From: an uncultured Gammaproteobacteria bacterium
Lineage (GTDB): Bacteria > Pseudomonadota > Gammaproteobacteria > CAWCPV01
Direction of reading: 5' to 3'
NCBI GenBank assembly: GCA_963797555.1
Contig: CAWCPV010000002.1
Location: forward strand, 32,001 to 96,000
DNA length: 64,000 bases
Numbering within the stretch: the first letter of the stretch is position 1; each line of letters begins with the position of its first letter. This document shows, one piece after another, positions 43,325-63,748 of this stretch. The notes below the pieces were generated by a model, which was not told where the DNA came from, did no database searches, and saw only the letters and a program-made list of their open reading frames with translations. Made by a program: the position numbers and the translations under genes.

Positions 43325-43464
43325 GAGCGCACGAAGAAATCGTCGCATCTGGGACGAGAGCAAGGCGCACGGAGCGCAGCGAGGAGACCTATCCAGCAGA
43401 TGGGTGAGGAGCGAGCACCGCGCCGCTATCGGGACGTACGGTAGATTTATCTATTGACAAGCTC
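43325..43464. repeat. About 140-bp dispersed MITE/REP-like element, copy 1
   Basis: Shares GAAGAAATCGTCGC...GAGAGCAAGGCGCACGGAGCGCAGCGA with 63939-64000; right end ACAAGCTC is the inverse of GAGCTTGT that starts copy 2. Confidence 0.7.
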
Positions 43465-43492
43465 TCAGAGTCGGCACCCCCGGGAGGACCCC

Positions 43493-44260: not shown

Positions 44261-44293
44261 GCGCGCCAAAGCGCGTTCGTAACCAAGACTGGC

Positions 44294-46751
44294 ATGAGCC
44301 CGGGCGACAGCCTTCCCCGCCCGGCGGGCCGGGACAAGCCCTTTCCGGCGCGGGTCGCCGTCGCGGTGGCACTGGTGTCCGCGGCCGTTCTCGCGTACGA
44401 GGTACTGCTCACCCGTCTGTTCACCATCATCCAGTGGCACCACTTCGCATACATGATCATCAGCCTGGCACTGCTCGGCTTCGGTGCCAGCGGGACTTTT
44501 CTCTCCTATGCCCAGGGAGCGCTGCTGCAGCGCTTCCGAGCCGCGTTCGCCACCAACGCCGCCTGCTTCGGACTGGGGAGCGTAACGGCCTTCGCGCTCG
44601 CCGAGCGCATCCCGTTCAATCCGCTCGAGCTGTTCTGGGACCTACGCCAGCCTCTCTACCTGCTCGGCGTCTTCGGCTTGCTGAGTGTCCCGTTCTTTTG
44701 CGCCGCCAATGCCATCGGGCTGGCCCTCGCCCGCCTGCGAGGACACATTCCCGCAGTCTATTGTGCGGACTTGGCGGGGGCAGGCGCTGGCGCCATCGGC
44801 AGCCTGACCTTGCTGTTCTGGCTGGCTCCCGACCGTGCGCTGCTCGTGGTCGGGAGTCTCGGGCTGCTCGCCGGGGCACTCGGCGCGCCGGGGCGCCGGG
44901 CGCCAGCCGCGCTGGTGACTGCAGCCCTTTGCCTCCCGGTGGGCTGGCCCGACGCCTGGCTCGGGGTGACCCCGTCCCCCTACAAGCCGCTGAGCGTCGC
45001 ACTCCACGTCAAGGGCGCTCGGGTACTACAGGAACTATCCAGCCCGCTGGGGGTGCTCACCGTGGTGGAGAACGCCGTGGTTCCTCCGCGCCATGCGCCG
45101 GGCCTCAGCCTTCGTAGCCAGGCCGTGCCCCCGGCTCAACTGGAGATATACACCGACGCCGATGCCCCCACGGCCATCAGTCATTTCGACGGGCGCGCGG
45201 AGAGCGTCGCCTATCTCGATGAGCTGACCTCCGCCCTGCCGTACCACCTCGTGCACCGGCCCAAAGTGCTGGTGCTGGGGGCCGGCGGCGGCAGTGACGT
45301 CCTCCAGGCCATCGCGGCCGGTGCGCGGGCGGTCACTGCCGTCGAGATCAACCCCCAAATGGTGCGCTTGGTGCGCAAGGATTACGGCGCCTTCGCCGGC
45401 CACTTGTATGACCGTGACGACGTGCGCGTGGTGGTGAGCGAGGCCCGCACCTTCGTCGAGGGCAGTCGGGAGCGCTTCGATCTGATCCAGCTAGCGCTGG
45501 TGGACTCGTCCGGCGCCGCGGGAGCCGGCCTGTATGCTTTGAACGAGAGCTACATCTACACGGTGGATGCGTTGCGGACCTATGTGGCACATCTGCGGCC
45601 CGGCGGGCTGCTTGCAATCACCCGCTGGCTGAATCTACCGCCGCGCGACTGCGTCAAGCTGTTCGCAACGGCGGCGGAGGCGCTGGGCGGCTCCAGCCCT
45701 GCGCCGGCCGCGGGTCGCCTCGCCCTAGTGCGAAGCTGGCGGACCTGCACGCTGCTGGTCAAGAACGGTCTGCTGCGTGCCGCCGACACCCTCGCGATCC
45801 GGGACTTCTGCCGCACCAGGGGTTTCGACGTCGCGTACTATCCCGGCATCCGCCCGCAGGAGGTCAACCACTATAACCTGCTCCCACAGCCCTACCTCTA
45901 CCAGGCAGCGGTGTCCCTGCTCGGGTCTCGGCGAGACCAGTTCCTCGCGGGGTACAAGTTCGAACGTCAGACCCGCTACCGATAACCGTCCGTATTTCTT
46001 CCACTTCTTCCGCTGGAGCGCATTGCCGGAGCTGATTGAGCTTCCAGCCCGCGGCGGCCTAGCGCTCATGGAGTGGGGCTACGTGGTCCTGGTCGCCACC
46101 CTGGCGCAGGCCCTCCTCCTCGGTGTGGCGCTGATCCTGCTGCCCCTGTGGAGCCGTCGAGTCAGCGCTGCAGGGCATATGCGCTTGGGAGTCGCCAGTT
46201 ACTTCACTACGCTCGGTCTGGCTTTCCTGTTCATGGAGATCAGTTTCATTCAGAGGTTCGTCTTATACCTCGGGGCACCCCTCTACGCGGTCTCCGTCGT
46301 CGTCGCCGGTTTCCTGCTCTTCGCCAGCCTCGGAAGCCTCGGCTCCGTGCACCTCCAAGCGCGTCTGGGGCGCATCTCGGCCATCACCGCCGCCGTTGCC
46401 GCTATCGCCCTGCTGTGCCCCGGCTACCTCGTCCTTTCGCCGGCACTGCTGCACGTGTTGCCGGCGCTCCCGGAGCCGCTCAGGATCGCCGCCGCGCTCG
46501 CGCTCCTCGCGCCGCTCGCCTTCTTCATGGGCATGCCCTTCCCCTTGGGGCTCCAGCGGGTGGCGTGTGCAGCCCCTCCCCTGATCCCGTGGGCTTGGGC
46601 CATCAACGGCTGCGCCTCGGTCGTGGGCGCGGTCGGTGCAACCTGGCTGAGTGTCCACTTCGGATTCGCGGCAGTCGTGCTGCTGGCCGCAGCCCTGTAT
46701 GCCGTAGCAGCGGCCTCCCAGGGGCTGCTGCAACCCGTCCCCGGCGGATAA
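44294..46751 (+). CDS. Polytopic membrane protein with spermidine-synthase-like methyltransferase domain; frameshift near 45960
   Basis: N-terminal TM block, VLVLGAGGGSDV, AVEINP, YTVDA, PATDNRPYFF, C-terminal TM block WAWAING. Confidence 0.8.
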
Positions 46752-49215: not shown

Positions 49216-49506
49216 ATGCCATCGGTCGAAAGCCTCACCAAAGACAGCGGGTTGACTGGCCTCGCCCTGGGTATCGGCACCGCTCTTGCCGTCGCCTGGG
49301 TGCTGCCCGCAATCGGGGCGGTCGCCCGACCGGTCGCAAAGGCGGCCATCAAGTCCGTCCTCTCGACCTATGCCAAGGTACTGGAAGGCGCGGCCGAGCT
49401 GGGTGAGTCCCTCGATGACTTGGTGGCAGAAGCGCGCGCCGAGATGGCGTCGGGATCGAATCCGCCGGCCTCGGCGCACGGACCGTCCGCACGTGCGCAA
49501 TCCTAG
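49216..49506 (+). CDS. DUF5132/FezA-like small membrane protein, copy A
   Basis: GLALGIG TM segment, RPVAKAAIK, ESLDDLVAEARAE. Confidence 0.8.
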   Translation: MPSVESLTKDSGLTGLALGIGTALAVAWVLPAIGAVARPVAKAAIKSVLSTYAKVLEGAAELGESLDDLVAEARAEMASGSNPPASAHGPSARAQS

Positions 49507-51032
49507 CAGCCTGTCGGACTTGAGCTTCCCAAGACCATCCCAAACCGTTTCAGTGTTGCTTTGGCACCAAAATGGGCGATTTAGGGCCGGAATTTGGCCA
49601 TTTTTCCGCCAACTTCCCGGTTACAGACGCAATGCGGCCATGCGTTTTAGATTCCAGGCGAGACACACCAGCGTCCATTCGGCTTGGACGTTTTGCAGGC
49701 CACGCAGCAGGAATTGGCGAAATCCCATCACCGACTTGATGATACCGAAGACCGGCTCCACGGTTTGCTTGCGTAGGGCATAGTCCGCTTTGCCTTGGCG
49801 TGTCTTGAGCCTGTGCTTCATCGTCTCCAGCGGCCCCGCCTTTTCCGGCAGTGGCGGCGGCTCGCTGAAGCGTTCCGTCCAATGGGGATGATGCCCCTCC
49901 CGGCCTACCGCGATGAGCGGTTGGATCTCAGCCTGCTGGCAAGCGGCAACGTTGTGCTCGCTGAAGTAACCGGCGTCGGCCAGAAGCTTCTCGGGCTGAT
50001 TCAGCCCCTCGGGCAGGGCTTGGAGTTTTCCGACCATCGGCTCGACCTGCTCTTTGTCGTTGGCCGCTTGGGTGACGTGGGCGAGAACCACCAGCATCGT
50101 CTCGCTGTCCACCAGCGCTTGGGCGTTGTAGCTCTGCTCGAAGCCGCCGCCCGCCACGGGCATGATGCGGGATTCTTGGTCGGTCAGGTTGATCTGGTCT
50201 TCGGCACGTGGCCCGGGCTGGGGCGGCTTCGGCTCCTTGCCAGCGGGTTTCTTGCCGCTTGCCGCGGCCTTGGCCGCACGGGCGGCCACCTTGGCTTCAT
50301 AGTCGGCCTGCTCGCGCGCGAAACGTTCCTGGGCGCGTGCCTCGATCTTGGCCTTGGCCTCGGCGATGGCCGCAAGACGGTCCTGCCGGCGCTGCAGTTC
50401 TTCCGGAAGGCTCATCCCGTCCGCCACCGCCGTTTGGTCAGCTTGTTCGGCCAGTGCGAGCAGCTCTTGGACCTCGGCCTTGAGTTGGGCCTCGATCTGC
50501 TCGGCGTGGCCGTAAGACAAGGCACTGTGCCGGCTGGCGTTGGCGTGCAGCTTGGTGCCGTCCAGGCTGACCGTGCCGAAGCGGCTGATCTGGTTCTCTC
50601 GTGCCACTTGCAGGACCTGCACAAAGGCCGCTTCGAATTGCTTGCCAAAGCGCCGCCGAAAACTCGCCAGGGTGTCGTGGTCGGGATGCTGGTTACAGGC
50701 GATGAACCGAAAGGCCAGCGAATCGTAGGTCGCCCGCTCGATCTTGCGGCTGGAGAAGCTGCCCGTGGCATAACCGTATATCAGCAGCGACAGCAGCAGC
50801 GCCGGGTGGTAGGCCGCGCTTCCGTTGCCGGCATAGGCGCGCTCCAGCTCGCCAAGGGCCAGTCCTTCGACCACCTCCACTACGTAGCGCGCCAGGTGGG
50901 CCTCGGGCAGCCAGTCCTGCACCGACGGCGGCAACAGAAAGTCCGTGTCACGGTCAATCGGGCGAAAGCGGCTCATCTCAAAACTCCTCGGGGCAGTGGC
51001 CGCTATTGTACAGGGCTAAGTCCGACAGGCTG
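49507..51032 (-). mobile_element. IS1182-family element, intact
   Basis: 15-bp IR CAGCCTGTCGGACTT; CTAG duplicated at 49503-06 and 51033-36. Confidence 0.95.
49621..50976 (-). CDS. IS1182 transposase
   Basis: LPEAHLAR, YHP, PDHDT, LDGTKLHANAS, LADAGY, RKQTVEPVFG. Confidence 0.95.
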   Translation of the reverse strand: MSRFRPIDRDTDFLLPPSVQDWLPEAHLARYVVEVVEGLALGELERAYAGNGSAAYHPALLLSLLIYGYATGSFSSRKIERATYDSLAFRFIACNQHPDHDTLASFRRRFGKQFEAAFVQVLQVARENQISRFGTVSLDGTKLHANASRHSALSYGHAEQIEAQLKAEVQELLALAEQADQTAVADGMSLPEELQRRQDRLAAIAEAKAKIEARAQERFAREQADYEAKVAARAAKAAASGKKPAGKEPKPPQPGPRAEDQINLTDQESRIMPVAGGGFEQSYNAQALVDSETMLVVLAHVTQAANDKEQVEPMVGKLQALPEGLNQPEKLLADAGYFSEHNVAACQQAEIQPLIAVGREGHHPHWTERFSEPPPLPEKAGPLETMKHRLKTRQGKADYALRKQTVEPVFGIIKSVMGFRQFLLRGLQNVQAEWTLVCLAWNLKRMAALRL

Positions 51033-51122
51033 CTAGGACGCCAAAGCCCGAGCGTTGCGGTGCGGCGTGCCCGTGGGGCGCCGGCTGACGCCGATGTCAG
51101 ATAGCAGCCACCGAGGGCAACC

Positions 51123-51842
51123 ATGACCGATCCAGAGCATTTCGCCGCCGCTGGGAAGCGCACCGGTTCAACCAAGAAGACGAGGAGACCAGGAATGGGT
51201 ACGGACTCTACGAAGAGTGAAGAGCTCACGAGGCCGTCACCGGCCGAAGCGATCCAGCCCGTCAGCAAGGCAGGCACTACCGTCAAGGAAGGGATCGTGG
51301 GAAGTCTGAAGGGCATCGACGAGATCGAGGCGCAGATCGTCAGCTTGGTGAGGAACACGGTTTCGTATGCCGTACGGGCCACCGGCGGGATCGCATCCGA
51401 AACGCTGAGCATTACCAAGGACGTGGTGGTCGGTGCGCTGTCCGCCACCGAGGAGGTAGGTGCCGGCCTTACCCTCAGCACCAAGAGCGTCGCCAAGGGC
51501 ATCGTGATGGGGGTAAGCAACGTCGGTGGGGACGTCATCGCCGTGGCCGCCGAGATTGTGAAGGCGGCGGTCAGAGGCGCTTCGGAAGTCGGCGCGGACG
51601 TGGGCATGGTCGCCAAACGGGCGGTCGACGGCGTGGTGGAGGCCGTCACCGAAACCGGCGGGAACGTCGCCGATGTGGCGACGGCGGCAGCGAGCGGCGC
51701 GGTGGAGGCAGCCGCCGCCATCGGTAACACCGCCGTCCGTGCGGTCAGAGACATGACCCTCGGGATCGCAGAGGGCATCAAGGAGGTGGCTGGCGCCATC
51801 CTGCCCAAACCCCGGCAGGGGCCGCCCAATCAATCGGGCTGA
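51123..51842 (+). CDS. 22-residue amphipathic-repeat protein, copy 3 (alternative start 51195)
   Basis: Colinear with copies 1 and 2; between DUF5132 and HMA2 genes. Confidence 0.85.
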   Translation: MTDPEHFAAAGKRTGSTKKTRRPGMGTDSTKSEELTRPSPAEAIQPVSKAGTTVKEGIVGSLKGIDEIEAQIVSLVRNTVSYAVRATGGIASETLSITKDVVVGALSATEEVGAGLTLSTKSVAKGIVMGVSNVGGDVIAVAAEIVKAAVRGASEVGADVGMVAKRAVDGVVEAVTETGGNVADVATAAASGAVEAAAAIGNTAVRAVRDMTLGIAEGIKEVAGAILPKPRQGPPNQSG

Positions 51843-52099
51843 GGCGCCGTCAGCCGCGACTTCCCATGTCCGCCAAGGGTCGCATCCAGTGCGGGCGCCC
51901 CACGCTCTTGGGCTCTTGCGGTAAACCGGTCCCCGGCGCTCGGTGTCCCGCCGCCCCACTCGGGGGCGCGGCGGCGCTTCGTGACGCGGTTGCCCGAGGG
52001 TTCGCCTGGGGAACTTTTTCAAAGTTTTCACGAAACTGAAACACTGTGTTGATTTAATACCCAAGGTCGACAGCCAGCACATCACGGAGAGAAGACTCC

Positions 52100-52483
52100 A
52101 TGACAGCCTACATCCATCATGTTCCCGGCAGGCTGCGGGTGCGCTCTGCACAGATCAAGGGTAATCCGCATCGTGCGGCCGCCGTGCAGCGCACACTGCT
52201 GCAGACCGCCGGGCTGTTGTCCGCGGAGGTGAGCACGACCACCGGCAGCGTGGTCATCCATTACGACCCGCAGCGGGTCGATTCCGACACTCTTCTGGGC
52301 CCTTTCAAGGATGCGGGATGCGTGTCCCCCGACGCCAGCCTAAACACCTCCACCGGGCGTATCGAGTCGGCAGCGGCGAACGAACCCTACGCCTGGGGCC
52401 TGATCGGCAAGGCCGTCGCCGGCGTCGTCCTGGAGAAGCTGGTCGAGCATTCCGCCACTGCGCTGATCGGGGCCATCATCTAG
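52100..52483 (+). CDS. Cys-less HMA2 (FezC/CoBaHMA-like) domain protein
   Basis: YIHHVPGRLRVR...TTGSVVIHYD; hydrophobic C-terminal helix. Confidence 0.82.
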   Translation: MTAYIHHVPGRLRVRSAQIKGNPHRAAAVQRTLLQTAGLLSAEVSTTTGSVVIHYDPQRVDSDTLLGPFKDAGCVSPDASLNTSTGRIESAAANEPYAWGLIGKAVAGVVLEKLVEHSATALIGAII

Positions 52484-52965
52484 TGTAGTGCTTCATTCTG
52501 TTTAGAACTTAAACGTGCGTTGGCGCGGATGACCTTCTGCAGGATGTCCTTAGCCTTGGCGGTCCAGATGAAGGGTTTGGGATTGGCGTTGTGGGCATCG
52601 ACATAGCGGTTGATGGCAGGGATCAACTCGGGGACGCTTCGAAACACGCCACGGCGCAACCGATCCACAGTCAGGTCGCGGAAGAATCGCTCGACCATGT
52701 TCAACCAGGATGCTGAGGTGGGCGTGAAATGGATGTGGAAACGCGGGTGTTTTCCCAGCCATTTCTGAACGTTGGGATGTTTGTGGGTGGCGTAGTTGTC
52801 GCAGACCAAGTGCAGTTCCTTGTCCTTGGGCGTCTCGCGGTCGATTTGGCGCAGGAAGGTGAGCCACTCCGTGTGGCGATGGTGCGGCTCGCAGCGGGCA
52901 ATCACGGAACCCTCCAAGGTGTTCAGGGCAGCAAACAGTGTTGTGGTGCCATGGCGCTTGTAGTC
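52480..52965 (-). mobile_element. IS630-family element, 3' half only
   Basis: DYKRHGTTTLFAAL, VCDNYATHK, TPTSASWLNMVERFF, PKPFIW; ends at CTAG. Confidence 0.9.
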
Positions 52966-53067
52966 AACACAGATGCATCCCACCCACCGGCGCTGACTCC
53001 GCCCCTTGAGCGGCGAAGGCCTCGCTCCTCGCCGATTTCCCCAAGGGTTGCGAGCCCTTTCGGCGCC

Positions 53068-54255
53068 TCAGCCGAGCCTTCCTACCCTATCGGTCATTTC
53101 CCAGGGCAGACCGATGTCCATTCGTCCCATATGTCCGTACGTCGCGAGCCTGCTGTAGAAACGCCCCTTGAAAGCTGCGGGCAGCCTGCGCAAATTGAAG
53201 GTCCGGACGATCCCGGCGGGCCGCAGGTCGAAGTTCCGCTCGACCAGGGCACCGATCTCGCCGTCCGGAACGCGACCGGTGCCGAAGGTCTCCACCTGGA
53301 TGCTCACTGGCCGGGACAGGCCGACCGTGTAGCTGAGCTGCAGCTCGCACTCCTGTGCGAGCCCCGCCGCCACGATATTCTTGGCCGCATGGCGCGCGGC
53401 ATAGGCGCCCACCCGGTCGATGCGCGTGGGGTCCTTCCCGCTCAGAGCCGCCCCGCTATGCCGGGAGTACTCGCCGTAAGTGTCGATGGCGTTCTTGCGC
53501 CCGGTCAGCCCCGAATGCACCGTCGGACCACCCACGAGCAGCGGACCCCCGGGGTTTACGAATAGGCGCGTGCTGACATCCGGGCGTAACTCTTCGTCGA
53601 CGAAAGCGGGCTTCACCACCAACTCGATCAGGTCGTCCCGGAGCCTGGTCGGCGAGGGGGTGTCCGCGCCGTACTGGCTGGCCACGAGGGTGATGCTGTG
53701 GATGCGCGAGGGCCTGCGCCCGCGGAACTCCACGCCCACCTGAGTCTTGCCGTCCGGCGCCAAGTACTCCAGGAGACCCTTGAGACGCACGGCCGCGAGC
53801 TGCCTGGCGAGCTTGTGGGCCAGCCAGATCGGCAGGGGTACGAGGGCGCTGGTCTGGGTGCAGGCGAAGCCGAACACGGTAACCTGATTACGGGCCGGTA
53901 CCGCTTCAATTTCGTCCTCGGACAGCTCGGACTCATGTCCCCGCAGCTTTGGCCCGGCCGGCATCTCGTTGAAGCTCGTCATGATGCTGCAGGTCCCGGG
54001 GTTGAAGTCCTCACGGTCGTAGCCCACCTGGCGGATGACTTGGCGGGCGACCTCCGGAATGTCGACGCTCGCCCCCGAGTTGAAACGCGCCGCGATGAAC
54101 AGGATGCCCGTCGAGACGGCACACTCCACGCGGATCAACGAGAACGGGTCCTGCTCCAGAAAGCGGTCGACCACTGCGTCGCTCACTTGGTCGCACAGCT
54201 TGTCCGGGTGACCCTCGGTCACCGATTCCGAGGTGAACATGAAGTCGTCTCTCAT
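53068..54255 (-). CDS. Divergent methionine adenosyltransferase (MetK) paralogue
   Basis: FTSESVTEGHPDK, DGKTQ, GLTGRK, SGKD present, but GAGDQG replaced by PARNQV; ATGA overlap with ATPase stop. Confidence 0.9.
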   Translation of the reverse strand: MRDDFMFTSESVTEGHPDKLCDQVSDAVVDRFLEQDPFSLIRVECAVSTGILFIAARFNSGASVDIPEVARQVIRQVGYDREDFNPGTCSIMTSFNEMPAGPKLRGHESELSEDEIEAVPARNQVTVFGFACTQTSALVPLPIWLAHKLARQLAAVRLKGLLEYLAPDGKTQVGVEFRGRRPSRIHSITLVASQYGADTPSPTRLRDDLIELVVKPAFVDEELRPDVSTRLFVNPGGPLLVGGPTVHSGLTGRKNAIDTYGEYSRHSGAALSGKDPTRIDRVGAYAARHAAKNIVAAGLAQECELQLSYTVGLSRPVSIQVETFGTGRVPDGEIGALVERNFDLRPAGIVRTFNLRRLPAAFKGRFYSRLATYGHMGRMDIGLPWEMTDRVGRLG

Positions 54256-57200
54256 GGGCTTTCCTCCCGATGTGCAGCCGTCTCCAAACTCACGCGCGGT
54301 GCAGCCCGCGACGCTGTACCTGCAGGCCACGCCTTGGTGGTTTCGTTGATCAGCAGAGGCGCGAGTGCCGTGCCCGCAACGACCAGGCCGTCCAAGAGCC
54401 CAATGGGCGCACTCCCCAGGAATTGCCTCAAGCCGGGTAACACCGCCGACAGGAACTGTAGTCCGAGGGATCCTGCCATCGCCCCCTTCAGATAAGGGTT
54501 CGCGGGAAGCGGCCGCGGATCGAACAAGCTATGCGTCTCGGAACGGCAGCTGATGGCATGCAGGAGTTGCGCCGTGGTCAGGCTCATGAACGCCATCGTA
54601 TTGGCCCTAGCCCCCAGACCATAGCGGTAGACCCCGTAGCCGTATGCAGCGAGCGCGCCCGCGGTGAGCGTGGAGGACTCGAACCCGATGCGCCCGAAAT
54701 CGCCCCAGCCCACGATGGGCTGCCTCGGATCGCGCGGTGGACGGCGCAGCACGTCCGGCTCCGGCGCCTCCATGGCCAGGGCGAGCCCAGGAAAAATGTC
54801 CGTGACCAGATTGATCCACAACAACTGCATCGGTGTAAGGGGTTGGCCCGCCCCTGCAGCGATGGCACCCAGCATGACCATGATCTCGCTCAGGTTGGTG
54901 GCCAGAAGGAAGTGGATGGACTTGCGGATGTTCCCATAGATGGTGCGACCGCGACTCACCGCCGTCACCATGGTGGCGAGATCGTCTTCCTCCAGCACCA
55001 CGTCGGCCACGGTGCGCGCGACATCGGTCCCGGCCCCTCCCATAGCGATTCCGATGTCGGCGGCCTTGAGGGCTGGCCCATCATTGATGCCATCTCCGGT
55101 CATGGCCACCACCTGGCCCGTCCGCTGCAGCGCCTGAACGATCTGGAGCTTGTGCGCGGGGCTCACGCGGGCAAATACGTGGACCCGCTCGGCAATGGCC
55201 GCCAGAACCTCCGAGTCGATGCGCTCTAGGTGGGTGGAGTCCAGGATTTCCAACTGGCCGCCAGCGCTGAGGTCCAGGGCTTTGCCGATCGCATAGGCCG
55301 TGGGGCTCTGATCTCCGGTGATCATCACTGTATCGATCCCGGCGTCGTGGAAGAGCCCGATCAAGTCCCGGACACCGGGCCGGATAGGGTCAGCCATCCC
55401 GACCAATCCTACCCACGTGAGCCCCTGGGACAGCTCGCCCCCCTCTGGAAGATCACTATAGGCCATCCCGAGAACGCGCAGGGCATCGCCCGCCATGCGG
55501 TCATTTTCGATACGGATGGTCGACCTCAGCTCCTCGCTCAGCGGATGCCGCTCCCCATCCCGAAAGATCCAGTCGCAGAGGCCCAGCACCTCCGACGGAC
55601 TGCCCTTGACCGCAACCCGCACCTGCCCGTCTGGCAGGGCATGGTGGCTCGCCATGTAGTTACGATTCTCGGCGCGCTGCTCCAGTCTGAGCACGGGAAA
55701 GCGGCGTCTGAGCGGGGGCACGTCGACCCCGGCATCCATCGCCATGCGCAGCAAGGCCGCCTCCGTCGGCGAGCCTTTGAAGGGATCGCCCGCGCCCGGT
55801 GCGTTCGGCACCGCCTCGTTGCACAGCACGGATACCTCCGCGAGACGCATCAGGTCTGGATGCTCCGACGGCGGGACGGCTGTTCCGTCGGCATCCCAGA
55901 AACATCCCTGCGACACCCCCAAGCGCACACCGTCGGTAGCCACCCGGACCACGGCCATGCGGTTCAGAGTCAGTGTGCCCGTCTTGTCCAGACACAACAC
56001 CTGCACCGCACCCAAGGTCTCGACGGCATCGAGCTGGCGGATCAGGACCTTGTGCCGTCGCATGTCCCGGATGCCGATGGCCAGAGTGGTGGTAGCGACG
56101 GTCGGCAGCCCCTCAGGCACCGCCGCCACCGCCAAGGAGATGGCGGTCTTGAGCATCTGCAGCAGGCCATAGCCGCGCAACAGTCCGAGGACGAATACGA
56201 CGCCGCAGACCGCCCCGCTCAGCACAATGACCCGCGTGCCCAATTGGCTGAGCTGCCGTTGCATCGGAGTCTCAGGGGACCTCGCTTCGCCCACGAGGGT
56301 CTGAATCGTACCGAGCTCCGTAAAACCGCCGGTGCCGACGACGACGGCGAGCCCACTCCCCCCGGTAACGGTCGTCCCCATGTACACCATATTCACCCGG
56401 TCACCAAGGGGTAGCTCGTCCACGCTCAGTGCCGCGGTGCTCTTGCTGACCGGCATGCTCTCACCGGTGAGCGGGGACTCGTCGAGCGTGAGCCAGCGTG
56501 CCTCGACGAGCCGGGCATCCGCTGCCACGTAGCTGCCTGGCGATAGGCTCAAGATGTCACCGACCACCACGTTCTCACTGCCGATCTCTCGTAGGCGGTT
56601 CTCCCGCAAGACATGGACCGAGGGTTGCACCACGCTGGCCAGGGCATCGATAGTGCGTTCCGCCTGCCGCTCCGTGATAAAGCCGATGGTAGCGTTGATG
56701 ATCACGACCCCCATGATGACCACCGCATCCGCGAAGCCACCCGTCGCTGCTGAGATGACGGCGGAGGCGCTGAGCAGCGCCACCGGCAGGCTGTTGAGCT
56801 GGCCGAGCAACATGCTCAGCGCCGAACGTCCGGCGGGCTGGGGCAATACGTTCGGGCCATAGGCAGCGAGCCGGTTGGCCACGGCCCCATTGGAGAGGCC
56901 CGGGTGTCCTGGGCTATCGACGACCGCCAGGACCTCCGGGGTGTCGAGACGGTGCCATAATCTTTGCGCCTGAGTCTGGTAACCCCCGAGCAAGCGCCGG
57001 GCGTGGTGCGAGTGGACATTGCTGCCCCCGCGTTGCGCGGCGCTGCGACGGCTCGGCGAGGTGCCGTCGCCGGCCCTTTGGAGCTGCTGCAGGGCCGTGC
57101 GCGAAGGGAGAAGCCGTTCGATGGCGAGGACGATGGTCGGCAGGTCCGTCGCCTCGCCGAAGGTAACGAGCACGTTCCCGGTCAGCGTGCTGGCCCAGAC

Positions 57201-57323
57201 CCCGGTAACGCCCGAAAGCCGGCGCACCGCGGATTCCAGGAGGGCCCGCACATGCGCGCCGCGGTGAAGCCCATGGACGCGCAAACGCGCCCGCCCGGGG
57301 ACCGCGGTATGGATCGGACGCAC
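54252..57323 (-). CDS. P2A (Ca2+-type) P-type ATPase with N-terminal HMA2 domain
   Basis: TGES, VPEGLP, DKTGTLT, KGSP, MITGD, GDGIND, TNLSE, WINLVTD; N-terminus HTAVPGRARLRV...TLTGNVLV; GTG start inferred from GAGG RBS. Confidence 0.93.
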   Translation of the reverse strand: MRPIHTAVPGRARLRVHGLHRGAHVRALLESAVRRLSGVTGVWASTLTGNVLVTFGEATDLPTIVLAIERLLPSRTALQQLQRAGDGTSPSRRSAAQRGGSNVHSHHARRLLGGYQTQAQRLWHRLDTPEVLAVVDSPGHPGLSNGAVANRLAAYGPNVLPQPAGRSALSMLLGQLNSLPVALLSASAVISAATGGFADAVVIMGVVIINATIGFITERQAERTIDALASVVQPSVHVLRENRLREIGSENVVVGDILSLSPGSYVAADARLVEARWLTLDESPLTGESMPVSKSTAALSVDELPLGDRVNMVYMGTTVTGGSGLAVVVGTGGFTELGTIQTLVGEARSPETPMQRQLSQLGTRVIVLSGAVCGVVFVLGLLRGYGLLQMLKTAISLAVAAVPEGLPTVATTTLAIGIRDMRRHKVLIRQLDAVETLGAVQVLCLDKTGTLTLNRMAVVRVATDGVRLGVSQGCFWDADGTAVPPSEHPDLMRLAEVSVLCNEAVPNAPGAGDPFKGSPTEAALLRMAMDAGVDVPPLRRRFPVLRLEQRAENRNYMASHHALPDGQVRVAVKGSPSEVLGLCDWIFRDGERHPLSEELRSTIRIENDRMAGDALRVLGMAYSDLPEGGELSQGLTWVGLVGMADPIRPGVRDLIGLFHDAGIDTVMITGDQSPTAYAIGKALDLSAGGQLEILDSTHLERIDSEVLAAIAERVHVFARVSPAHKLQIVQALQRTGQVVAMTGDGINDGPALKAADIGIAMGGAGTDVARTVADVVLEEDDLATMVTAVSRGRTIYGNIRKSIHFLLATNLSEIMVMLGAIAAGAGQPLTPMQLLWINLVTDIFPGLALAMEAPEPDVLRRPPRDPRQPIVGWGDFGRIGFESSTLTAGALAAYGYGVYRYGLGARANTMAFMSLTTAQLLHAISCRSETHSLFDPRPLPANPYLKGAMAGSLGLQFLSAVLPGLRQFLGSAPIGLLDGLVVAGTALAPLLINETTKAWPAGTASRAAPRVSLETAAHREESP

Positions 57324-57542
57324 GGCGGCACCCTCTTCTGCGGCAGACGACAATGCCCGGGCCCTTCCAGCGGGTGCAGACCTATTCAGTCCTAGCTCAG
57401 TTACCTCGATGGTCGCAGGCGCGACGCGCGCAAACCAACCGCACGCATCTAATGCGAGCCCGTCGAGGAAACCGTGCATGATGTGGCGCAGATGTTTCAT
57501 AATGATGACTGGCCAAAATCCAGTCAAATTTAGAGGTGGAAC

Positions 57543-57827
57543 ATGGCACTGTTCGACGATGCATTGAAGAGCTGGGGGGTGCCCACCCTGTTGGGCGTCG
57601 GTGTGGTGATCGCCATCCCCGTTGTGCTGCCGCTGGTCGGCGCTGCACTGCGGCCCGTTGCCAAGGCAGCGATAAAGGGCTATCTCGCCTTCAGCGACGC
57701 GGCCAGCGAATACGTGGCGGGTGCGGCCGAGGAGTTGAGCGATCTAGTCGCCGAGGTCAAAGCCGAGCGAGCGGGCGTCGTTGCCGCCCCGTCTGCGGCA
57801 TCTGGGGCCGGGGCATCCGGGGAGTGA
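57543..57827 (+). CDS. DUF5132/FezA-like small membrane protein, copy B
   Basis: GAGG RBS; LLGVGVV TM segment, RPVAKAAIKG, EELSDLVAEVKAE. Confidence 0.85.
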   Translation: MALFDDALKSWGVPTLLGVGVVIAIPVVLPLVGAALRPVAKAAIKGYLAFSDAASEYVAGAAEELSDLVAEVKAERAGVVAAPSAASGAGASGE

Positions 57828-59743
57828 CCGGCCGAACTCCCTCCTGCGGGAGCGTCGCACCTTCGGGCAACTCTTCCATGAGACTTCCGGCCTTGCGCGT
57901 GGCCCACGCTCTACCGGGGCGAGTGCGCCTCAAGGTTCCCGCCCTCAAGGGTAACGGGGATCTCGTGCAGGCCGTGTGCGAACAACTGGAGACTGTCGAC
58001 GCCGTCCTGGAAGTGCGCGCGAGCCCGCTCACCGGAAGCCTGCTGGTCCGCTACGACACCTCGCGAATTCCGTCTCTAGGAGTCTGTCGGACTTAAGGTA
58101 GAAACGCGGGTGTTGCAACGCCCCAAGGGGGGAATCTTGACCATGTGGCTCAGGTATGGGTGAGAAGCTATCTTTTTTGCGTGGCAAGACCCTTCACGTG
58201 CCTTCTTTTCACCCGTTCAGGGCATGCATCCGCTTCAGATTCCACCCAAGGCATACTAAAGCCCATTCACTTCGGACTGCGTCTAAGCCGCGAAGCAGAA
58301 ATTGCCTGAACCCTTGCACGTGTTTGAGGATACCGAAGACGGTTTCCACGGAAGATTTGCGCTTGGCGTAAAGTGCCTTACCTTCCTTGGTTTGCAGGCG
58401 GTGGTGCATCGCCTGTACGGGTGTGGGATTGCGAGGGGGTTTAGGGTCTTCGGCGAAGCGCGTCTGTAAGGGAACATTGTGCTTCTCGCGTTTTTCCGGG
58501 ATGAGCGGCGCGATGCGAGCGTTTTTGCACCGCTGAACGTTGGCCTCGCTGAAGTAGCCGGTGTCGGCGAGGAGGGATTCGCCCTGACCCAGCGCCTCGG
58601 GCAACTGGGCAATGTTCTCTAACGCCGGCGCAATCTCCTGTTTGTCATTGGGGTGCTGGGTGACGTGGTGCTCCACGATGAGATGCGTCTCGACATCCAC
58701 CCCGGCCTGCACGTTGTAGGCCTGTTCGAACCCTCCACTGGAGGTGGGCATGATGCGTGATTCTTCATCCGTCAGATTGACTTGGTCCTTGGCCTGCGGG
58801 CCAGGTGTCGGAGGACTCGGCGCCTTGCCCCGAGCCTTCTTGCCGGTGTGTTTCTCATAGACCTCGCGCTTGGCCTGCTTCTGTTCGAACTCCGCCTGCT
58901 CGCGCTCAAAACGCGCCTGCGCCCGGGTCCGGATCTCCTCTTTCGCCTGGGCAATCGCCGCCAGTCGCTCTTCGCGACGCTTGAGTCGGCGGGAATATCC
59001 ATCTCCTCCGCCAGTGAGCTCCGGTCGGCCTGCTCGGCAAAGCGCATCAGGGCTTGCACTTCCTCCTGAAGCTGCGCCTCGAGCCGGTTCGCGTACTCCC
59101 AACTCAGCGCCTTATGCTTGCTGGCGTTTGCTTTGACCTTGCTCCCATCCAGCGCAATCGTGCCCAGCTTCACCAGCCCCATCTCTGCCGCCACCAGCAG
59201 AATCTCGACAAACAGCCCCTCCAGCTCCTTCAGAAACCGCCTGCGGAATTGCGCGATGGTGTCATGGTCCGGGTGCGTGTTGGCACAGATATACCGAAAC
59301 GCGATCGAATCATGGGTCGCCTTCTCCAGCTTGCGACTGGAAAACACCCCCGTGGCATAGCCGTAGAACAGCAACGCCACTAACATCGCCGGGTGGTAGG
59401 GCTTCGACCCCTTACCCCCGTACACCGCCGACAGATGCCTCAGCTCCAACTGCTCCACAATCTCCACCACAAATCGAGCCAAGTGCCCTTCCGGGAGATA
59501 GTCCTGCACGCAAGGCGGGAAAATATACGGGGTATCGCGGTCTATCGGGATGAATTCAACAGCCATCTTGCTCCCCAGGCGGTGGCCCGCTACAGTGCGC
59601 CTATTCTACCCCCGAGTCGGCTCCAAGTCCGACAGCCTCTAGGCGCCTTTCATAAGCTGCTCGAGCCCATCCACGGGCTGTTTCCGGGTGCCCAGGATCT
59701 GGGCGCTGCCGCCGCGCAACAGGCGGACTCCACGTCCCGCTGA
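57824..59743 (+). pseudogene. Second stand-alone HMA2 protein, interrupted by IS1182 (coding 57824 or 57878 to 58079, then 59643-59743)
   Basis: VAHALPGRVRLK...SPLTGSLLVRYD; frame resumes after the IS as (L)GAFHKLLEPIHGLF...SR*. Confidence 0.8.
58080..59639 (-). mobile_element. IS1182-family element (distinct from 49507 copy); transposase 59566-58209 frameshifted near 58990
   Basis: IRs GAG(T/G)CTGTCGGACTT; TAG duplicated within CTAG context; LDGSKVKANAS, LADTGY, RKSSVETVFG. Confidence 0.92.
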
Positions 59744-60152
59744 TCCCCGGCGTTGCGCGACGGAATTCTATCCTCGCTGGGCGCGCTCGATAACCGCTAT
59801 CGGACGCGCCGCTGCGGGGCACGGACTTGCGTCTGCTGATTCCGGTCCCGCTGTTATTTCTCGGCTTGCGGTCGCTCATCGTTGCCGAATAACTACTCGT
59901 TCCCGTCTGACATGACTACTTCTCGTTCACCTTCGTCACCTTTGCGATGCTGAACCGCCCGCGCCACGGCGCGGACGCCCCCTCCTGGTCCTCGTAGGGC
60001 GTCGTCAAGATCTCGGCTGACCTTGCCGAGGCGGCCTGACGGTTGGCGTGCGGTGGCCTGGCCGTCCGACCGTGATGGAGGCGACCCCACCGGCACGTCT
60101 CCGAGACGGACCGTGGCGTGTGTCACAGGAACGCAACGTTTCCGATCCGCTA

Positions 60153-60172
60153 ATGTCACGACGGCGTGACAT
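60153..60172. promoter_or_regulatory. Palindromic candidate operator ATGTCACG-N4-CGTGACAT
   Basis: Perfect 8-bp arms 45 bp upstream of the PlcP-like gene; another TGTCAC lies 33 bp upstream at 60121. Confidence 0.45.
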
Positions 60173-60217
60173 AGTGCGCAGCGTCCCGAGGACAGAGCGG
60201 CGCGGGCGATTCTTACG

Positions 60218-61027
60218 ATGAAACCGTTAGAGCTTCGGTCTGTGTGGATATCGGATGTGCATCTCGGTCTACGAGCATGCAAGGCCGAGTTTCTCCTGGA
60301 CTTCTTGCACAACGTGAGGTCCGAGTATCTGTACCTCGTGGGGGACATCATCGACTTCTGGACCCTGCGCAGCGGCTGGTACTGGCCCCAAATGCACAGC
60401 GACGTGTTGCGGGCGGTCCTGCACCGGGCCCAGAACGGTACGCATGTGGTCTACGTGCCCGGCAATCATGATGAGCTTTTCCGAGAATATGCCGGGACGA
60501 TCTTCGGGGGCGTCCAGGTGCGGTCCGAGGCGGTCCACGAGACGGCCGACGGCCGTAAGTTTCTAATCATTCACGGCGACGAGTTCGACTACGTCGTCAA
60601 GCACAACCGCACCGTGGCCCTGATCGGCAGCGGCGCATACGAGCTTCTGCTGAGCGCCAACCGTTGGGTGAACGCGGCGCGGCGCAGGCTCGGGCTGCCT
60701 TACTGGTCGCTTGCCGCTTACCTCAAGCACAAGGTGAAAAACGCGGTCAACTACATCAGTAATTTTGAGCATGCTCTGGTGCACGAGGCACGCAAGCGCA
60801 GGCTCGACGGCGTCATCTGTGGGCATATCCACAAGGCCGCCATCCAGCAGATCAACGGTGTCCTCTACTGCGACGGCGATTGGGTGGAAAGCTGTACGGC
60901 CCTGGTCGAGCACCAGAACGGACGCCTGGAGGTGATCCACTGGGCCGATGAAAGCGTGTTCCTGCTGGCGGAGGGCGAGGAACAACGGTCAGCGTCTATC
61001 CCCGTACACGTGGCTCGCGTCTCTTGA
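60218..61027 (+). CDS. PlcP-like Mn-dependent phospholipase C (LpxH/UDP-2,3-diacylglucosamine hydrolase superfamily)
   Basis: ISDVHLG, LVGDIID, YWPQ, PGNHDE (His rather than the LpxH Arg), HGDEFD, CGHIH, GDWVESCTAL. Confidence 0.8.
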   Translation: MKPLELRSVWISDVHLGLRACKAEFLLDFLHNVRSEYLYLVGDIIDFWTLRSGWYWPQMHSDVLRAVLHRAQNGTHVVYVPGNHDELFREYAGTIFGGVQVRSEAVHETADGRKFLIIHGDEFDYVVKHNRTVALIGSGAYELLLSANRWVNAARRRLGLPYWSLAAYLKHKVKNAVNYISNFEHALVHEARKRRLDGVICGHIHKAAIQQINGVLYCDGDWVESCTALVEHQNGRLEVIHWADESVFLLAEGEEQRSASIPVHVARVS

Positions 61028-61121
61028 GAGCGCCTGCCCCGCCTCATGCTTGTTCGTGGGTGCTGCGACGCTTACCGGCCACTGCTCACTCGATGATCCG
61101 AAAGCCATAGGAGATAACGGA

Positions 61122-61850
61122 GTGACGAAGCCTATGAGAATGCTCCGAGAGCCAGTGCAGGCTGCCTTCAGTCTGAGCCCGGCCCTGCTGAGCGACGTTC
61201 TGTACCATGCGAAGCCCTTGGGCCACAATGAGCAGCCCGACAATCTAAACCTCGGGTTCGGCTTTCTGTATTACGGCTTGGTCCGCGCCCTGCGCCCGGC
61301 ACATGTCCTGGTGATAGGCTCGGGCTTCGGATTCAGCGTCGTGTGCCTTGCCCTGGGCCTGAAGGACAATGCAAAAGGATGCCTGAGCTTCGTAGATCCC
61401 TCCTATTCGGTGTTCAAGAATGGACCGCTCCACACCATGGGCGGAAGGGGGCAGTGGGACGATCCTCCGCGGGTACGTGATCACTTCGCGCGTTTCGGAG
61501 TAGACGACCGGGTTGTCCATTACAAGCTGAGGAGTGACGAGTTCTTCCCGCAGTATGAAGCGCTGGACTTGGCCGCCATCGACATCGCCTTCATCGACGG
61601 CAATCATGCCTACGCCAACGTCAAGTACGACTTCCTTCAGGTGCTGCATCGCGCCCACAAGAACAGCTACGTCTTGCTTCACGACAGCAACATCTACATC
61701 CGCGAGATGGTGCACCACGCCGGCGTGAAACGCTGGCTCAAGTTTCTGAAGCGCGACAGGGACTGCTTCGAGGTGCTGGATTTCCCGTTCGCTTCCGGGG
61801 TGGCCGTCGTGCGTATCTTGCAGGACGGGGTATGGACCCCGCCGCAATAG
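61122..61850 (+). CDS. Class I SAM-dependent methyltransferase-like protein (Methyltransf_24-type)
   Basis: VLVIGSGFGFS, FVDP, IDIAFIDGNHAY, LLHDS. Confidence 0.75.
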   Translation: MTKPMRMLREPVQAAFSLSPALLSDVLYHAKPLGHNEQPDNLNLGFGFLYYGLVRALRPAHVLVIGSGFGFSVVCLALGLKDNAKGCLSFVDPSYSVFKNGPLHTMGGRGQWDDPPRVRDHFARFGVDDRVVHYKLRSDEFFPQYEALDLAAIDIAFIDGNHAYANVKYDFLQVLHRAHKNSYVLLHDSNIYIREMVHHAGVKRWLKFLKRDRDCFEVLDFPFASGVAVVRILQDGVWTPPQ

Positions 61851-62526
61851 CCCCCCTTTGGGGGTGGCCGCGGCCTCTGCCGCCGCGCTCTATTGGCGGT
61901 ATGTCTGGTTCTTCCGCAATCCGGCCCGGACACCGCCACGGGAGGACGGCGTCCTGAGCCCCGCCGATGGGACCGTGGTCTATGTCAAGCACATCGCTTC
62001 CAACGAGGCCGTGATCTGCATCAAGAAGGGGATGCACATCGCCGTCAGCGATATCGTGAGGAGCGAGATGCCCCTGCCGAAGCTGCTCGTCGGTGTCTTC
62101 ATGAGCCCGTTCAACGTGCACTACAACCGGGCGCCCATCTCGGGTCGCGTGGCGCTAATCCGGCACCATCCGGCCCACGGCCACAACGTCCACATGGGCC
62201 CCATGCATCTGCGGGTCATCCTGGGGCGGCTCCCCCTGTACACGAACAGCCGGCACCTGCTGCAGAACGAGCGGACCGTCACCCGGATCGACGGCATCTA
62301 CAGGGGTCACCCGATGCCCTGCTATGTGGTGCAGATCGCCGCGAAGACGGTCCGCGGCATCGACAGCTACGTAGGGGAAGGACAGGTCATCGAGAGGGGA
62401 CAGACCTTCGGGATGATCCGCATTGGCTCTCAAGTCGACCTGATACTACCGTGGACGGAAGACTTGGAGGTGGCGATCCGCCCCGGCGACAAGGTCCGCG
62501 CCGGCGAAACCATTCTGGTCCGCTGA
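61832..62526 (+). CDS. psd: Phosphatidylserine decarboxylase family proenzyme (likely start ATG 61832 with a 1-nt slip in the C/G runs at 61851-61864)
   Basis: FFRNP.R, SPADG, FMSPFNVHYNRAP, NER, GMIRIGSQVD self-cleavage GS motif, VRAGET. Confidence 0.85.
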
Positions 62527-62708
62527 GTGCCCCCGAGCCAGGGGGGACGGCGCCCTCGCTACACCTCGGACTGCGGCTATAAGTTGGAGACAGCGCTTCT
62601 GCAAGCGCCGGCGGCTATCTACCGTCCTGTCCAGCTCTTGGAGGCACACCTGCGGCTGCCGGAGGACGCGGCCCCGCCGACGCCGCACCAGATTGAGAGT
62701 GTACCTTC

Positions 62709-62880
62709 CGGGGCACCTCGAAAAATTTGGCACTGGCTGGCGCCAGTGGTCCCCGACGAGGAACGAAGCGACGCCCCAGCCCGGATTCTCCGACCTCGAC
62801 GAGCCCCCCTCGTGCACGTCCGCCAGGTGGTCGACTGGGATGCCTTTCGCCCCCGGCTTGGGCGTCTGCACCACGGGAGC
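62709..62880 (+). mobile_element. IS5-family left-end relic
   Basis: GGGCACCTCGAAAAA end followed by QPGFSDLDE / PLVHVRQVVDWDAFRP fragments. Confidence 0.5.
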
Positions 62881-63034
62881 GACGAGCAGATCGAGGTTGT
62901 ATCAACTGGAGCGAAGGGGATAGCGCCTCTTCGGGAATCGCGTATGGAAAGACCGCGCGGGTCCACCGACACATCCGGCAGCGCACACCACTGGAGCCCA
63001 CTCAGTCATTGCTGCCCTCCTGCGCCGATGGGCG

Positions 63035-63748
63035 TCACCACGGGATCGGCTGGCGGTCGCGGAAGAATCCGCCGCTGGGTCCCTCATCAGGGAGGGTGGC
63101 GAGCCACACGATGGTGTCCGCCCCTTCGGCGGGGGTGCGCAGCGCGTTGGGCCCACCCATCCGGGTGCGTACCCAGCCGGGGCATACCGAGTTGACCTTG
63201 ATGTTGGTGCCGGCGAGCTCATCGGCCAGGATCCGAGTGACCCCGTTCAAGGCGAGCTTGGACAAGCGGTACGCCGGATAGCCCCCATTCATGTCCGAGA
63301 GCTGCCCCATGCCGGATGAGACGTTCACGATGCGCCCGTAACCGCGCGCCTTCATCAGCGGAACGAGCGCCTGGGCCAGAGACAAGGCTGCGTAGGCATT
63401 GGTCTCCATCGCCGCGCGAATTCGGTCGAGATCAGCCGCGAAGATGCTGCTGGCCGCGTGCGCATCGGGCAGGATGCCGGCGTTGTTGACCAGGATGTCG
63501 AGCCCCCCGATGTCGGCGCGTAGGAAGTCCGCAAGCCCATGGATGCCTTCGACATCCGTGACCGACAGGGCTCGGAACAGGATGTCGAGGCCTTCGCCCC
63601 GCAACGTCTCCGCTGCCGCCTTGCCGTTGTCGGGGTCGCGGGCGGTGAGGACCACCCGGATCCCCCGCCTGGCGAGCTGGCGGCAGGTCTCGAAGCCAAG
63701 CCCGCGGTTGGCTCCAGTGACTACGGCGACCTTCGACTCCTCAGACAT
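63035..63748 (-). CDS. Short-chain dehydrogenase/reductase (carbonyl reductase-like)
   Basis: TGANRGLG, NNAG, NVSS, YRLSK, CPGWVRTRMGG. Confidence 0.93.
   Translation of the reverse strand: MSEESKVAVVTGANRGLGFETCRQLARRGIRVVLTARDPDNGKAAAETLRGEGLDILFRALSVTDVEGIHGLADFLRADIGGLDILVNNAGILPDAHAASSIFAADLDRIRAAMETNAYAALSLAQALVPLMKARGYGRIVNVSSGMGQLSDMNGGYPAYRLSKLALNGVTRILADELAGTNIKVNSVCPGWVRTRMGGPNALRTPAEGADTIVWLATLPDEGPSGGFFRDRQPIPW

Follow-up and report, generated by a model that had tools for sequence, protein, structure and literature searches.

Ferrosomes are a recently defined lipid-bounded bacterial organelle that holds iron-phosphate granules and is linked to iron-homeostasis genes, and the fez operon behind them is one of the described systems closest to the locus analyzed in this work. 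The pump of this operon, FezB, is a P1B-6 ATPase recognized by D[Y/F]SCA and HNxxT and by an R-rich motif at its N-terminus; the R-rich motif recurs in FezC, an HMA protein that has two membrane helices, and the third protein, FezA, is small and contains GxxxG in a hydrophobic region. Ferrosomes are enriched in Fez proteins and depend on them (bioRxiv 10.1101/2020.01.10.902569). A second described arrangement is found in Microcystis aeruginosa PCC 7806, where the neighbours of ccyA are a pair of DUF5132 genes, a pair of CoBaHMA genes and the gene of a Ca2+/H+ exchanger (cax), with some of those DUF5132 and CoBaHMA genes being co-expressed with ccyA, a marker of intracellular amorphous CaCO3 (bioRxiv 10.1101/2024.07.07.602159). 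Here, we describe the gene cluster at positions 49216-62526 of a 64,000-nucleotide stretch of DNA from an uncultured Gammaproteobacteria bacterium (hereafter, the window), which corresponds to contig C2:32001-96000 of the source assembly (G000; 5.35 Mb, 20 contigs, 65% G+C, 84.6% complete). An initial annotation of this cluster had proposed a ferrosome-like compartment built around a Ca2+-type pump, a rewired MetK and lipid-remodelling enzymes, and had also drawn the link to calcyanin, which is on record in the Microcystis ccyA neighbourhood just described.

We tentatively regard the locus as a rearranged copy, hit by three insertion sequences (IS), of a widespread module that is a sister system to the fez operon, a reading to which we give a little under an even chance and whose proposed steps are set out below. 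In this module, a P2A-type pump with intact catalytic motifs carries the same Cys-less basic HMA_2/CoBaHMA N-terminus as the P1B-6 FezB-type pumps and is encoded together with FezC-like HMA_2 proteins and FezA-like DUF5132 proteins; a 22-mer repeat protein (REP22) and a MetK paralogue set this system apart. Each of the genes named in the initial annotation was found in Pfam/NCBIfam scans and translations.

One genome per species was searched with the window ATPase, and the best 80 of 591 confirmed stretches were taken as loci, in which partners were mapped by tblastn and in-house profiles (a domain-only HMA_2 profile, phmmer). A pump open reading frame (ORF) with an N-terminal HMA_2 domain was present in 58 of the 80 loci; in two more the pump was frameshifted, three were cut by contig ends, one was a fragment, and in 16 the pump was devoid of HMA_2. 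The usual operon consists of DUF5132, HMA_2 (~160 aa), REP22 (~230 aa), pump (~1040 aa) and MetK-like (~397 aa) genes, in this order, and ends with a convergent ~123-aa HMA_2 gene. The MetK-like gene directly adjoined the pump gene in 41 of the 47 loci having at least 1.2 kb downstream, and tblastn revealed it in three more (L020, L021 and L037); it was not found in L052, L063 and L064, which kept the pump, DUF5132 and HMA_2 genes. Within the 58 loci with an HMA_2-fused pump, DUF5132 was detected in 44, a standalone HMA_2 protein in 39 and REP22 in 26. Many locus contigs were short; where the contig extended at least 4 kb to each side (31 loci), DUF5132 was present in 30. As an internal control, the small partners were found in none of the 16 loci whose pump was devoid of HMA_2 (37-57% identity to the query). 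Locus L062 had been scored as being without HMA_2 and MetK, yet tblastn showed a MetK-like match beside a partial pump match.

The carriers belong to at least seven phyla and include Nitrospirota, many Desulfobacterota, Cyanobacteria, Nitrosospira, Gamma- and Alphaproteobacteria, Acidobacteriota, Methylomirabilota and Binatia, so that the co-occurrence of the core genes expected in the initial annotation held across phyla. Three proteobacterial loci (L005, L007 and L044) share the convergent layout of the window. In the source assembly, a profile search placed three HMA_2 domains and both DUF5132 genes all within the cluster, with one weak match elsewhere (E 0.005), and HMA_2 and DUF5132 were likewise restricted to the cluster in the genomes of L037, L007 and L044. 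REP22 was found in none of 60 genomes of the same class, which suggests a patchy and probably horizontal spread of the module. Regarding the surroundings, the families encoded next to the module in at least four loci included a zinc-ribbon protein (12 loci), an ABC ATPase (11), two-component proteins (10), DUF3562 (7), PhoU (6), an Na_Ca_ex exchanger (5), GT4 (5), a Pst-type permease (4), a ParA-like protein (4: L017, L022, L055 and L057) and PHA_gran_rgn (4).

The relationship with fez operons was analyzed in the order to which L037 belongs (Desulfovibrionales), where HMA_2 was searched in 121 genomes; 48 of them gave matches, and 12 regions were examined (L117-L128). All 12 fez-type loci encoded a P1B ATPase with DYSCA and HN[LV]TT (P1B-6 motifs) plus an HMA_2 domain, and in all of them a small HMA_2 protein was encoded just downstream of the pump, in agreement with Pfam. 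Just upstream, a protein of 84-172 aa that matched our in-house DUF5132 profile was present in 11 of the loci, the twelfth being cut by a contig end. Comparison with hhalign of 31 cluster DUF5132 proteins against 10 fez-upstream proteins gave a probability of 93% (E 3.3e-7, 71 columns), and both groups share KPLA and EDxEDLxAEA[KR]. The HMA_2 domain of the pump, the small HMA_2 proteins and DUF5132 all have counterparts in P1B-6 operons, and the ferrosome parallel drawn in the initial annotation is thus one of homology rather than mere analogy. As far as homology and synteny go, these sequence comparisons support a ferrosome-like reading. REP22 and MetK-like proteins were present in none of the 12 fez-type loci and therefore define the system described here. 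A divergent protein of ~150-220 aa with a weak match to the HMA_2 profile was also noted upstream of most P1B-6 operons in L117-L128, the one in L117 having no Pfam match.

As initially annotated, the window encodes no P1B ATPase. Furthermore, a pump with DYSCA/HNxxT (P1B-6) located elsewhere, which could have accounted for the DUF5132 and HMA_2 genes, was not found anywhere in the 84.6%-complete assembly, whose P1B ATPases are of the CPC and CPH types. HMA_2-fused P1B pumps do adjoin the module in five other loci (L022, L045, L052, L063 and L064); none of them is P1B-6, two are CPC-type, and in L052 the P1B pump is accompanied by DUF5132 and HMA_2 genes of its own. Several classes of pump therefore share this toolkit.

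The pump of the window (54252-57527, minus strand; 1091 aa, with Cation_ATPase_N and Cation_ATPase_C) showed the P2A motifs PEGL, NLSE and NLVTD that had been initially recognized, along with the catalytic motifs DKTGT, TGES and TGDGxND. Its HMA_2 domain was detected at residues 72-136 with 22-24.6 bits (Pfam cut-off 30) and with 1.6e-16 when our in-house profile was used; the domain (residues ~66-140) reads IHTAVPGRARLRV, contains no cysteine and includes the R-rich motif. The best solved relatives were SPCA1 (2.7e-147) and LMCA1 (3.8e-140). DKTGT, TGES, PEGL, N..E in transmembrane helix 5 (TM5) and N..[ST]D in TM6 were kept in 55-57 of 57 pump homologues, and Q and H of TM8 (Q..H) in 48 and 54 of them, respectively. 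Six of the seven SERCA Ca2+-site residues (E309, N768, E771, N796, T799, D800 and E908) are present, with Q at the E908 position. By likeness to these relatives, the protein would be a working cation pump of the Ca/Mn type.

The gene adjoining the pump encodes the MetK-like protein (53068-54255, minus strand; 395 aa from the ATG at 54255), and the TGA of the pump gene overlaps this ATG (ATGA); a 4-nt overlap of the ATGA type at the pump stop codon is possible in 19 of 38 loci. The protein passed the TIGR01034 cut-off (365.8 vs. 309.4 bits) and is 40% identical to the canonical MetK encoded on contig C3 (439092-440273). We compared 46 cluster-linked sequences by alignment to this canonical MetK, with the residue numbering of the canonical enzyme. 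D238 was replaced by H and E55 by R or H in all 46 sequences, and Q98 was lost in all of them in favour of a hydrophobic residue or H. These three positions are the methionine-binding residues of the canonical enzyme (review, PMC1282579), which bears out the initial description of this MetK as rewired. Furthermore, R took the place of K269 in all 46, the adenosine-binding residues S99 and R229 were mostly replaced, and the GAGDQG motif was lost (PARNQV in the window), its first G being present in none of the 46 sequences and its last G in two. The triphosphate and metal residues D16, K17, E42, R244, K245, K265 and D271 were kept in 46/46, and the catalytic His H14 (GHPD) in 43/46.

Among the best 150 representatives of a library of 1.84 billion proteins, 106 were canonical and 27 had H at the D238 position; in the about 106 D238-type representatives, E55 was present in 90, Q98 in 94 and D238 in all. 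In a tree of 109 rows, the H238-type formed one side of a split with 98% support. Most likely, as judged from residue conservation, the MetK-like protein changed its second substrate and kept ATP-triphosphate chemistry. It is therefore a candidate for a new enzyme activity, which automatic annotation would call methionine adenosyltransferase. Separately, 3 kb upstream of the cluster (43454-45985, plus strand), a protein-isoaspartate methyltransferase gene is followed by one whose 563-aa product weakly matches spermine-synthase-like proteins and methyltransferases; these are further genes using S-adenosylmethionine (SAM) near the second MetK.

With regard to the small proteins, DUF5132(A) (49216-49506, plus strand) matched Pfam DUF5132 with 1.1e-9 and 38.7 bits (cut-off 25), and hydropathy indicated an N-terminal hydrophobic GxxxG segment (residues ~10-41) and a charged C-terminal helix. 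DUF5132(B) (57543-57827, plus strand), which is divergent from the pump gene, also has an N-terminal hydrophobic GxxxG segment and is 45-51% identical to DUF5132(A); it fell just below the cut-off of Pfam DUF5132 (PF17195; 8.6e-5, 23 bits vs. 25) and reached 8.2e-29 with our in-house profile. Cyanobacterial DUF5132 proteins are long (172-211 aa), and in Chlorogloeopsis fritschii PCC 6912 (L009:9264-9836), whose genome has 18 HMA_2 matches, DUF5132 is fused to positions 89-152 (the C-terminal part) of the HMA_2 model, joining two partners that are separate genes elsewhere.

HMA2(A) (52100-52483, plus strand; Pfam HMA_2 4.2e-10, 40.2 bits, cut-off 30) is of the ~123-aa type, starts with HHVPGRLRVR, is devoid of CxxC and is full length, as the alignment of its homologues extends to its last residue. 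HMA2(B) is of the longer ~160-aa type, whose homologues carry a hydrophobic C-terminal segment. Its N-terminal CoBaHMA part (57878-58075, plus strand; Pfam HMA_2 2.7e-14, 53.8 bits) is cut by the element IS2, and its remainder (59643-59982, plus strand) has ~34 codons readable past IS2 followed by the hydrophobic C-terminal part in another frame (59818-59982), which was recognized by tblastn with residues 127-181 of the L020 homologue (52.7% identity, E 9e-12). HMA2(B) is therefore a pseudogene. Within this remnant, a related metagenome contig (X1, depth 5.4) skips 215 nt at 59720-59936 and has three different letters at the joint, as would result from either an insertion in the window or a deletion in the relative. 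HMA2(A) and HMA2(B) both passed the Pfam HMA_2 (PF19991) cut-off and show the CoBaHMA features (no CxxC, a His before strand 1 and basic residues); across loci, CxxC was missing from 144 of 145 HMA_2 domains. Complex prediction with the L044 DUF5132 protein and its ~160-aa HMA_2 neighbour gave a score of 0.03 and a mark of 0.32, which counts neither way.

In REP22 (51123-51842, plus strand; 239 aa), a basic, disordered N-terminus is combined with about eight helix-turn repeats of 22 residues, and the 22-residue periodicity peaks at offsets of 22 and 44 residues with z = 7.8. An AlphaFold (AF2) model built from 29 sequences showed six helices joined by three-residue Gly turns (pLDDT 76.4, pTM 0.61), and the protein is thus predicted to form an alpha-solenoid. 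It had no Pfam or NCBIfam match, a protein-atlas search returned hypothetical clusters only, and Foldseek gave no natural match, its best hits being designed helical repeat proteins (E 1e-3). Two further REP22 paralogues are encoded 30-40 kb upstream in the window, at 12273-13274 (plus strand; core 57-60% identical) and at 20397-21053 (minus strand; core 53% identical), the former being located downstream of a ParA/MinD-like gene truncated at 94 aa (11643-11927, plus strand), which lies just before it.

Taking these elements together, the module could work as follows. The small membrane proteins and the CoBaHMA domains would concentrate the pump in a specialised patch of membrane or in a vesicle, perhaps via anionic lipids, and the pump would load a divalent cation, Ca2+ or Mn2+ most likely, from the cytosol into this patch or vesicle. 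REP22 might serve as a cytosolic scaffold or coat. The MetK-like protein would no longer use methionine and would keep ATP-triphosphate chemistry, either adenosylating another, probably anionic, acceptor, or freeing tri-, pyro- and orthophosphate beside the pump. The adjacent methyltransferase and the second phosphatidylserine decarboxylase (PSD) would be an occasional add-on rather than part of the core. In this genome the system may be impaired, the ~160-aa HMA_2 gene being broken.

Several observations weigh against a sister system to ferrosomes operating in this way. A compartment, an ion or an enzymatic product has been observed for no module member. Regarding the HMA_2 domain, an R-rich N-terminus is also present on related P1B pumps such as CtpC, for which no organelle is mentioned in the accessible part of the ferrosome report (bioRxiv 10.1101/2020.01.10.902569), so that the domain cannot be taken as the mark of a compartment. 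Between DUF5132 and FezA the relationship is distant, with Pfam placing the fez-side proteins nearest to DUF6110, below the cut-off, and these proteins were identified by their position beside P1B-6 pumps and not via FezA of D. magneticus. Neither an iron gene nor a conserved SAM-using enzyme was seen among the neighbours shared by at least four loci. The pump itself stayed under the NCBIfam equivalog cut-offs, its best models being PMR1-type TIGR01522 (584.6 vs. 798.3) and SERCA-type TIGR01116 (535.1 vs. 703.4), and its ion-site residues are the same as in relatives without HMA_2; furthermore, the second Ca site and the ion are uncertain because Q replaces SERCA E908. As for this particular genome, HMA2(B) is a pseudogene, and the assembly in which P1B-6 pumps were searched is only 84.6% complete. 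Finally, the inclusion of lipid enzymes among the cluster members, as initially annotated, did not hold, since Metallophos was present in 0, Methyltransf_24 (MT24) in 1 and PSD in 2 of the 80 loci.

The lipid genes of the window follow HMA2(B) on the plus strand. The metallophosphoesterase (60218-61027; Metallophos) is LpxH/PlcP-like at best, its sole match being a weak LpxH-like one (1.3e-10, 40.8 bits). The MT24 methyltransferase (61134-61850) has its likely start at 61134 or 61140, and its homology to relatives begins at ORF residue ~68-74. The PSD (61858-62526; PS_Dcarbxylase) is a second, divergent copy in the genome, which pairs with the methyltransferase in other genomes; the alternative of its being the housekeeping copy was rejected, as a stronger PSD is encoded on contig C4. 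An MT24-PSD pair was located ~4 kb upstream of the pump in L023, from one other phylum (60% and 56% identity), and L048 showed a weak PSD match of 23%. A metagenome scan with the methyltransferase gave three loci, and L084 and L085 have MT24 with PSD fragments and no pump cluster within 10 kb. The methyltransferase and the second PSD are thus occasional neighbours and not a defining part of the module. The abstract of the paper on CoBaHMA reportedly mentions transport and lipid-metabolism proteins.

Alternatively, the pump may act in the cytoplasmic membrane, in cation efflux or homeostasis, with dedicated regulatory subunits and no compartment, an explanation to which we assign a sizeable minority chance. 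The CoBaHMA domain would then be autoregulatory or lipid-sensing, and the MetK-like protein moonlighting or regulatory. Eukaryotic P2 pumps have small membrane regulators such as phospholamban, sarcolipin and FXYD, and, by analogy, DUF5132 and the HMA_2 membrane proteins might act like them. That the ion-site residues equal those of partnerless relatives without HMA_2 is in line with such a role, as is the R-rich/HMA_2 N-terminus on P1B exporters such as CtpC. Similarly, the HMA_2-fused non-P1B-6 P1B pumps beside the module in five loci show a toolkit shared by pumps generally, and the neighbours include an Na/Ca exchanger and two-component regulators. However, this explanation leaves unaccounted for a conserved soluble protein, the predicted alpha-solenoid, with three paralogues here, as well as the ParA-like neighbours. 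Furthermore, homologous Fez proteins are enriched on and required for ferrosomes in the one system studied, and DUF5132 and CoBaHMA genes accompany the marker gene of intracellular carbonate granules.

Carried to its furthest, the reading as a sister system to ferrosomes would amount to a new organelle: a ferrosome-like vesicle that the P2A pump fills with Ca2+ or Mn2+ and that has a REP22 coat, in which the MetK paralogue, once a SAM synthetase, has become a local supplier of tri-, pyro- and orthophosphate or an adenosyltransferase acting on an anionic acceptor, and seeds or controls a Ca/Mn-phosphate mineral. In this complete form we consider it unlikely; if it were true, DUF5132 and CoBaHMA would form a general kit for cation-storing compartments, including ferrosomes, carbonate granules and the present system.

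A module centred on the chemistry of the MetK paralogue, in which the pump and its partners export, sequester or respond to its adenosylated or phosphate-derived product and the substrate is not Ca2+/Mn2+, seems to us improbable. The tight, often translational, coupling of the pump and MetK-like genes would fit it, and so would the replacement of the three methionine-binding residues, two of them by basic residues, with the triphosphate and metal sites intact, and the absence of both MetK-like and REP22 from 12/12 fez-type loci. Yet the pump has a standard P2A cation site, kept in 48-57 of 57 homologues, three loci (L052, L063 and L064) retain the pump, DUF5132 and HMA_2 without the MetK-like gene, and other conserved biosynthetic enzymes were not seen among the neighbours shared by at least four loci. 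Accidental adjacency of unrelated genes in an IS-rich island has a negligible probability, since, although IS copies and gene fragments abound in the window and the lipid genes are not conserved neighbours, dozens of loci spread over several phyla show the core order again, which already contradicts it for the core genes, and four genomes have their HMA_2 and DUF5132 genes in the cluster only.

Three mobile elements were located as mapped in the initial annotation. IS1 (49501-51038), which is IS5/IS1182-like, ends in perfect terminal inverted repeats of 21 nt, has CTAG at either junction and encodes an intact 451-aa DDE transposase (49621-50976, minus strand), and a second identical copy is present on contig C20. 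The IS630-like fragment of 487 nt (52480-52966; DDE_3 2.6e-19) has 21 other copies in the assembly with 95-99.8% identity, of which 20 are full-length at at least 99.4% and one is a 306-nt partial at 95%; as other copies extend past the end seen here, the copy of the window is truncated. IS2 (58076-59642), also IS5/IS1182-like, has a frameshifted transposase (58209-59102 and 58772-59566, minus strand) and six further copies or part-copies in the genome.

Of these insertions, only IS2 splits a gene, HMA2(B). IS1 and the IS630 fragment lie where DUF5132(A) and HMA2(A), respectively, end, and not inside them: the stop codon of DUF5132(A) is at the IS1 junction, and the IS630 fragment is inserted at the stop codon of HMA2(A). 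Marsh-metagenome contigs from a ~94% identical relative bypass both IS1 (joint 49505>51078, three runs) and the IS630 fragment (joint 52483>52984, three runs). Since IS-free alleles thus exist in related environmental contigs, these two insertions are recent, and the order DUF5132(A), REP22, HMA2(A) is native. Loss of an HMA_2 gene between DUF5132(A) and REP22 through IS1 was considered and rejected, as the IS-free contigs join both genes directly.

The window as a whole is rich in mobile elements and gene fragments. Just downstream of the cluster, an ORF without family match (62527-63195, plus strand) shares its last 83 residues, at 89% identity, with a stretch on contig C13, and small parts of this ORF are also present on C4, C16 and C7; probably, a further repeated element is involved. 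A Tn5-type transposase is encoded at 14948-16273 (minus strand) and a 658-aa protein with a weak multicopper-oxidase match at 8401-10377 (minus strand). The ORF at 22023-23024 (plus strand) is presumably a PhoD-type phosphatase, as judged by eye from its motifs; together with the Pst and PhoU genes close to the module elsewhere, it might point to a connection with phosphate.

In the literature searched, we encountered no account of this operon. The module may mark an undescribed cation-storage or pump-control system. These results suggest that the small-protein toolkit of ferrosomes is not iron-specific, FezA-like and FezC-like proteins and a CoBaHMA-tagged pump also serving a calcium-type P2A pump across several phyla. 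Two DUF families are thereby tied to a function, and culturable carriers are available for asking whether bacteria make Ca/Mn storage compartments, namely Nitrosospira sp. Nsp14 (L007), Chlorogloeopsis fritschii PCC 6912 (L009), Rivularia sp. UHCC 0363 (L033), Vacuolonema iberomarrocanum LEGE 07170 (L041) and Thermodesulfatator autotrophicus S606 (L075).

PlcP-Agt lipid remodelling under phosphate stress, in which PlcP is paired with the GT4 enzyme Agt (PMC9239053), resembles the locus in that an LpxH-related metallophosphoesterase adjoins the cluster here and that GT4 is near the module in 5 loci and Pst/PhoU in 4-6; the metallophosphoesterase, however, is present in 0/80 related loci. The ccyA neighbourhood likewise has two DUF5132 and two CoBaHMA/HMA_2 genes beside a calcium transporter, with CoBaHMA domains devoid of CxxC and with conserved basic residues. 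There, however, a Ca2+/H+ exchanger acts as the transporter and calcyanin, a GlyZip protein, serves as the marker, and a P2A pump, a MetK paralogue and REP22 are not reported in the accessible portion of that work.

With methionine adenosyltransferase (MetK), the MetK-like protein shares the three-domain fold, GHPDK, the K+/Mg2+ residues and the triphosphate-binding residues, but E55, Q98, D238, S99, R229 and GAGDQG are replaced across its clade. With SPCA1/PMR1 and LMCA1, the pump has in common the full set of catalytic motifs as well as the site residues in TM4 and TM6; it differs from them in an extra ~190-residue N-terminus with the CoBaHMA domain, in a SERCA-like N..E in TM5, which is missing from SPCA1 and LMCA1 in the alignment, and in Q..H in TM8. 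Finally, as in ferrosomes, the window pump has an N-terminal R-rich/HMA_2 domain and a small HMA_2 protein as partner, a FezA-like GxxxG small membrane protein (DUF5132) is encoded, and the order is small membrane protein and then pump. In contrast to the ferrosome system, the pump is P2A (PEGL, N..E, N..TD) and devoid of D[Y/F]SCA and HNxxT, and the module has phosphate and Ca-exchanger genes rather than iron genes as neighbours and adds REP22 and the MetK paralogue.

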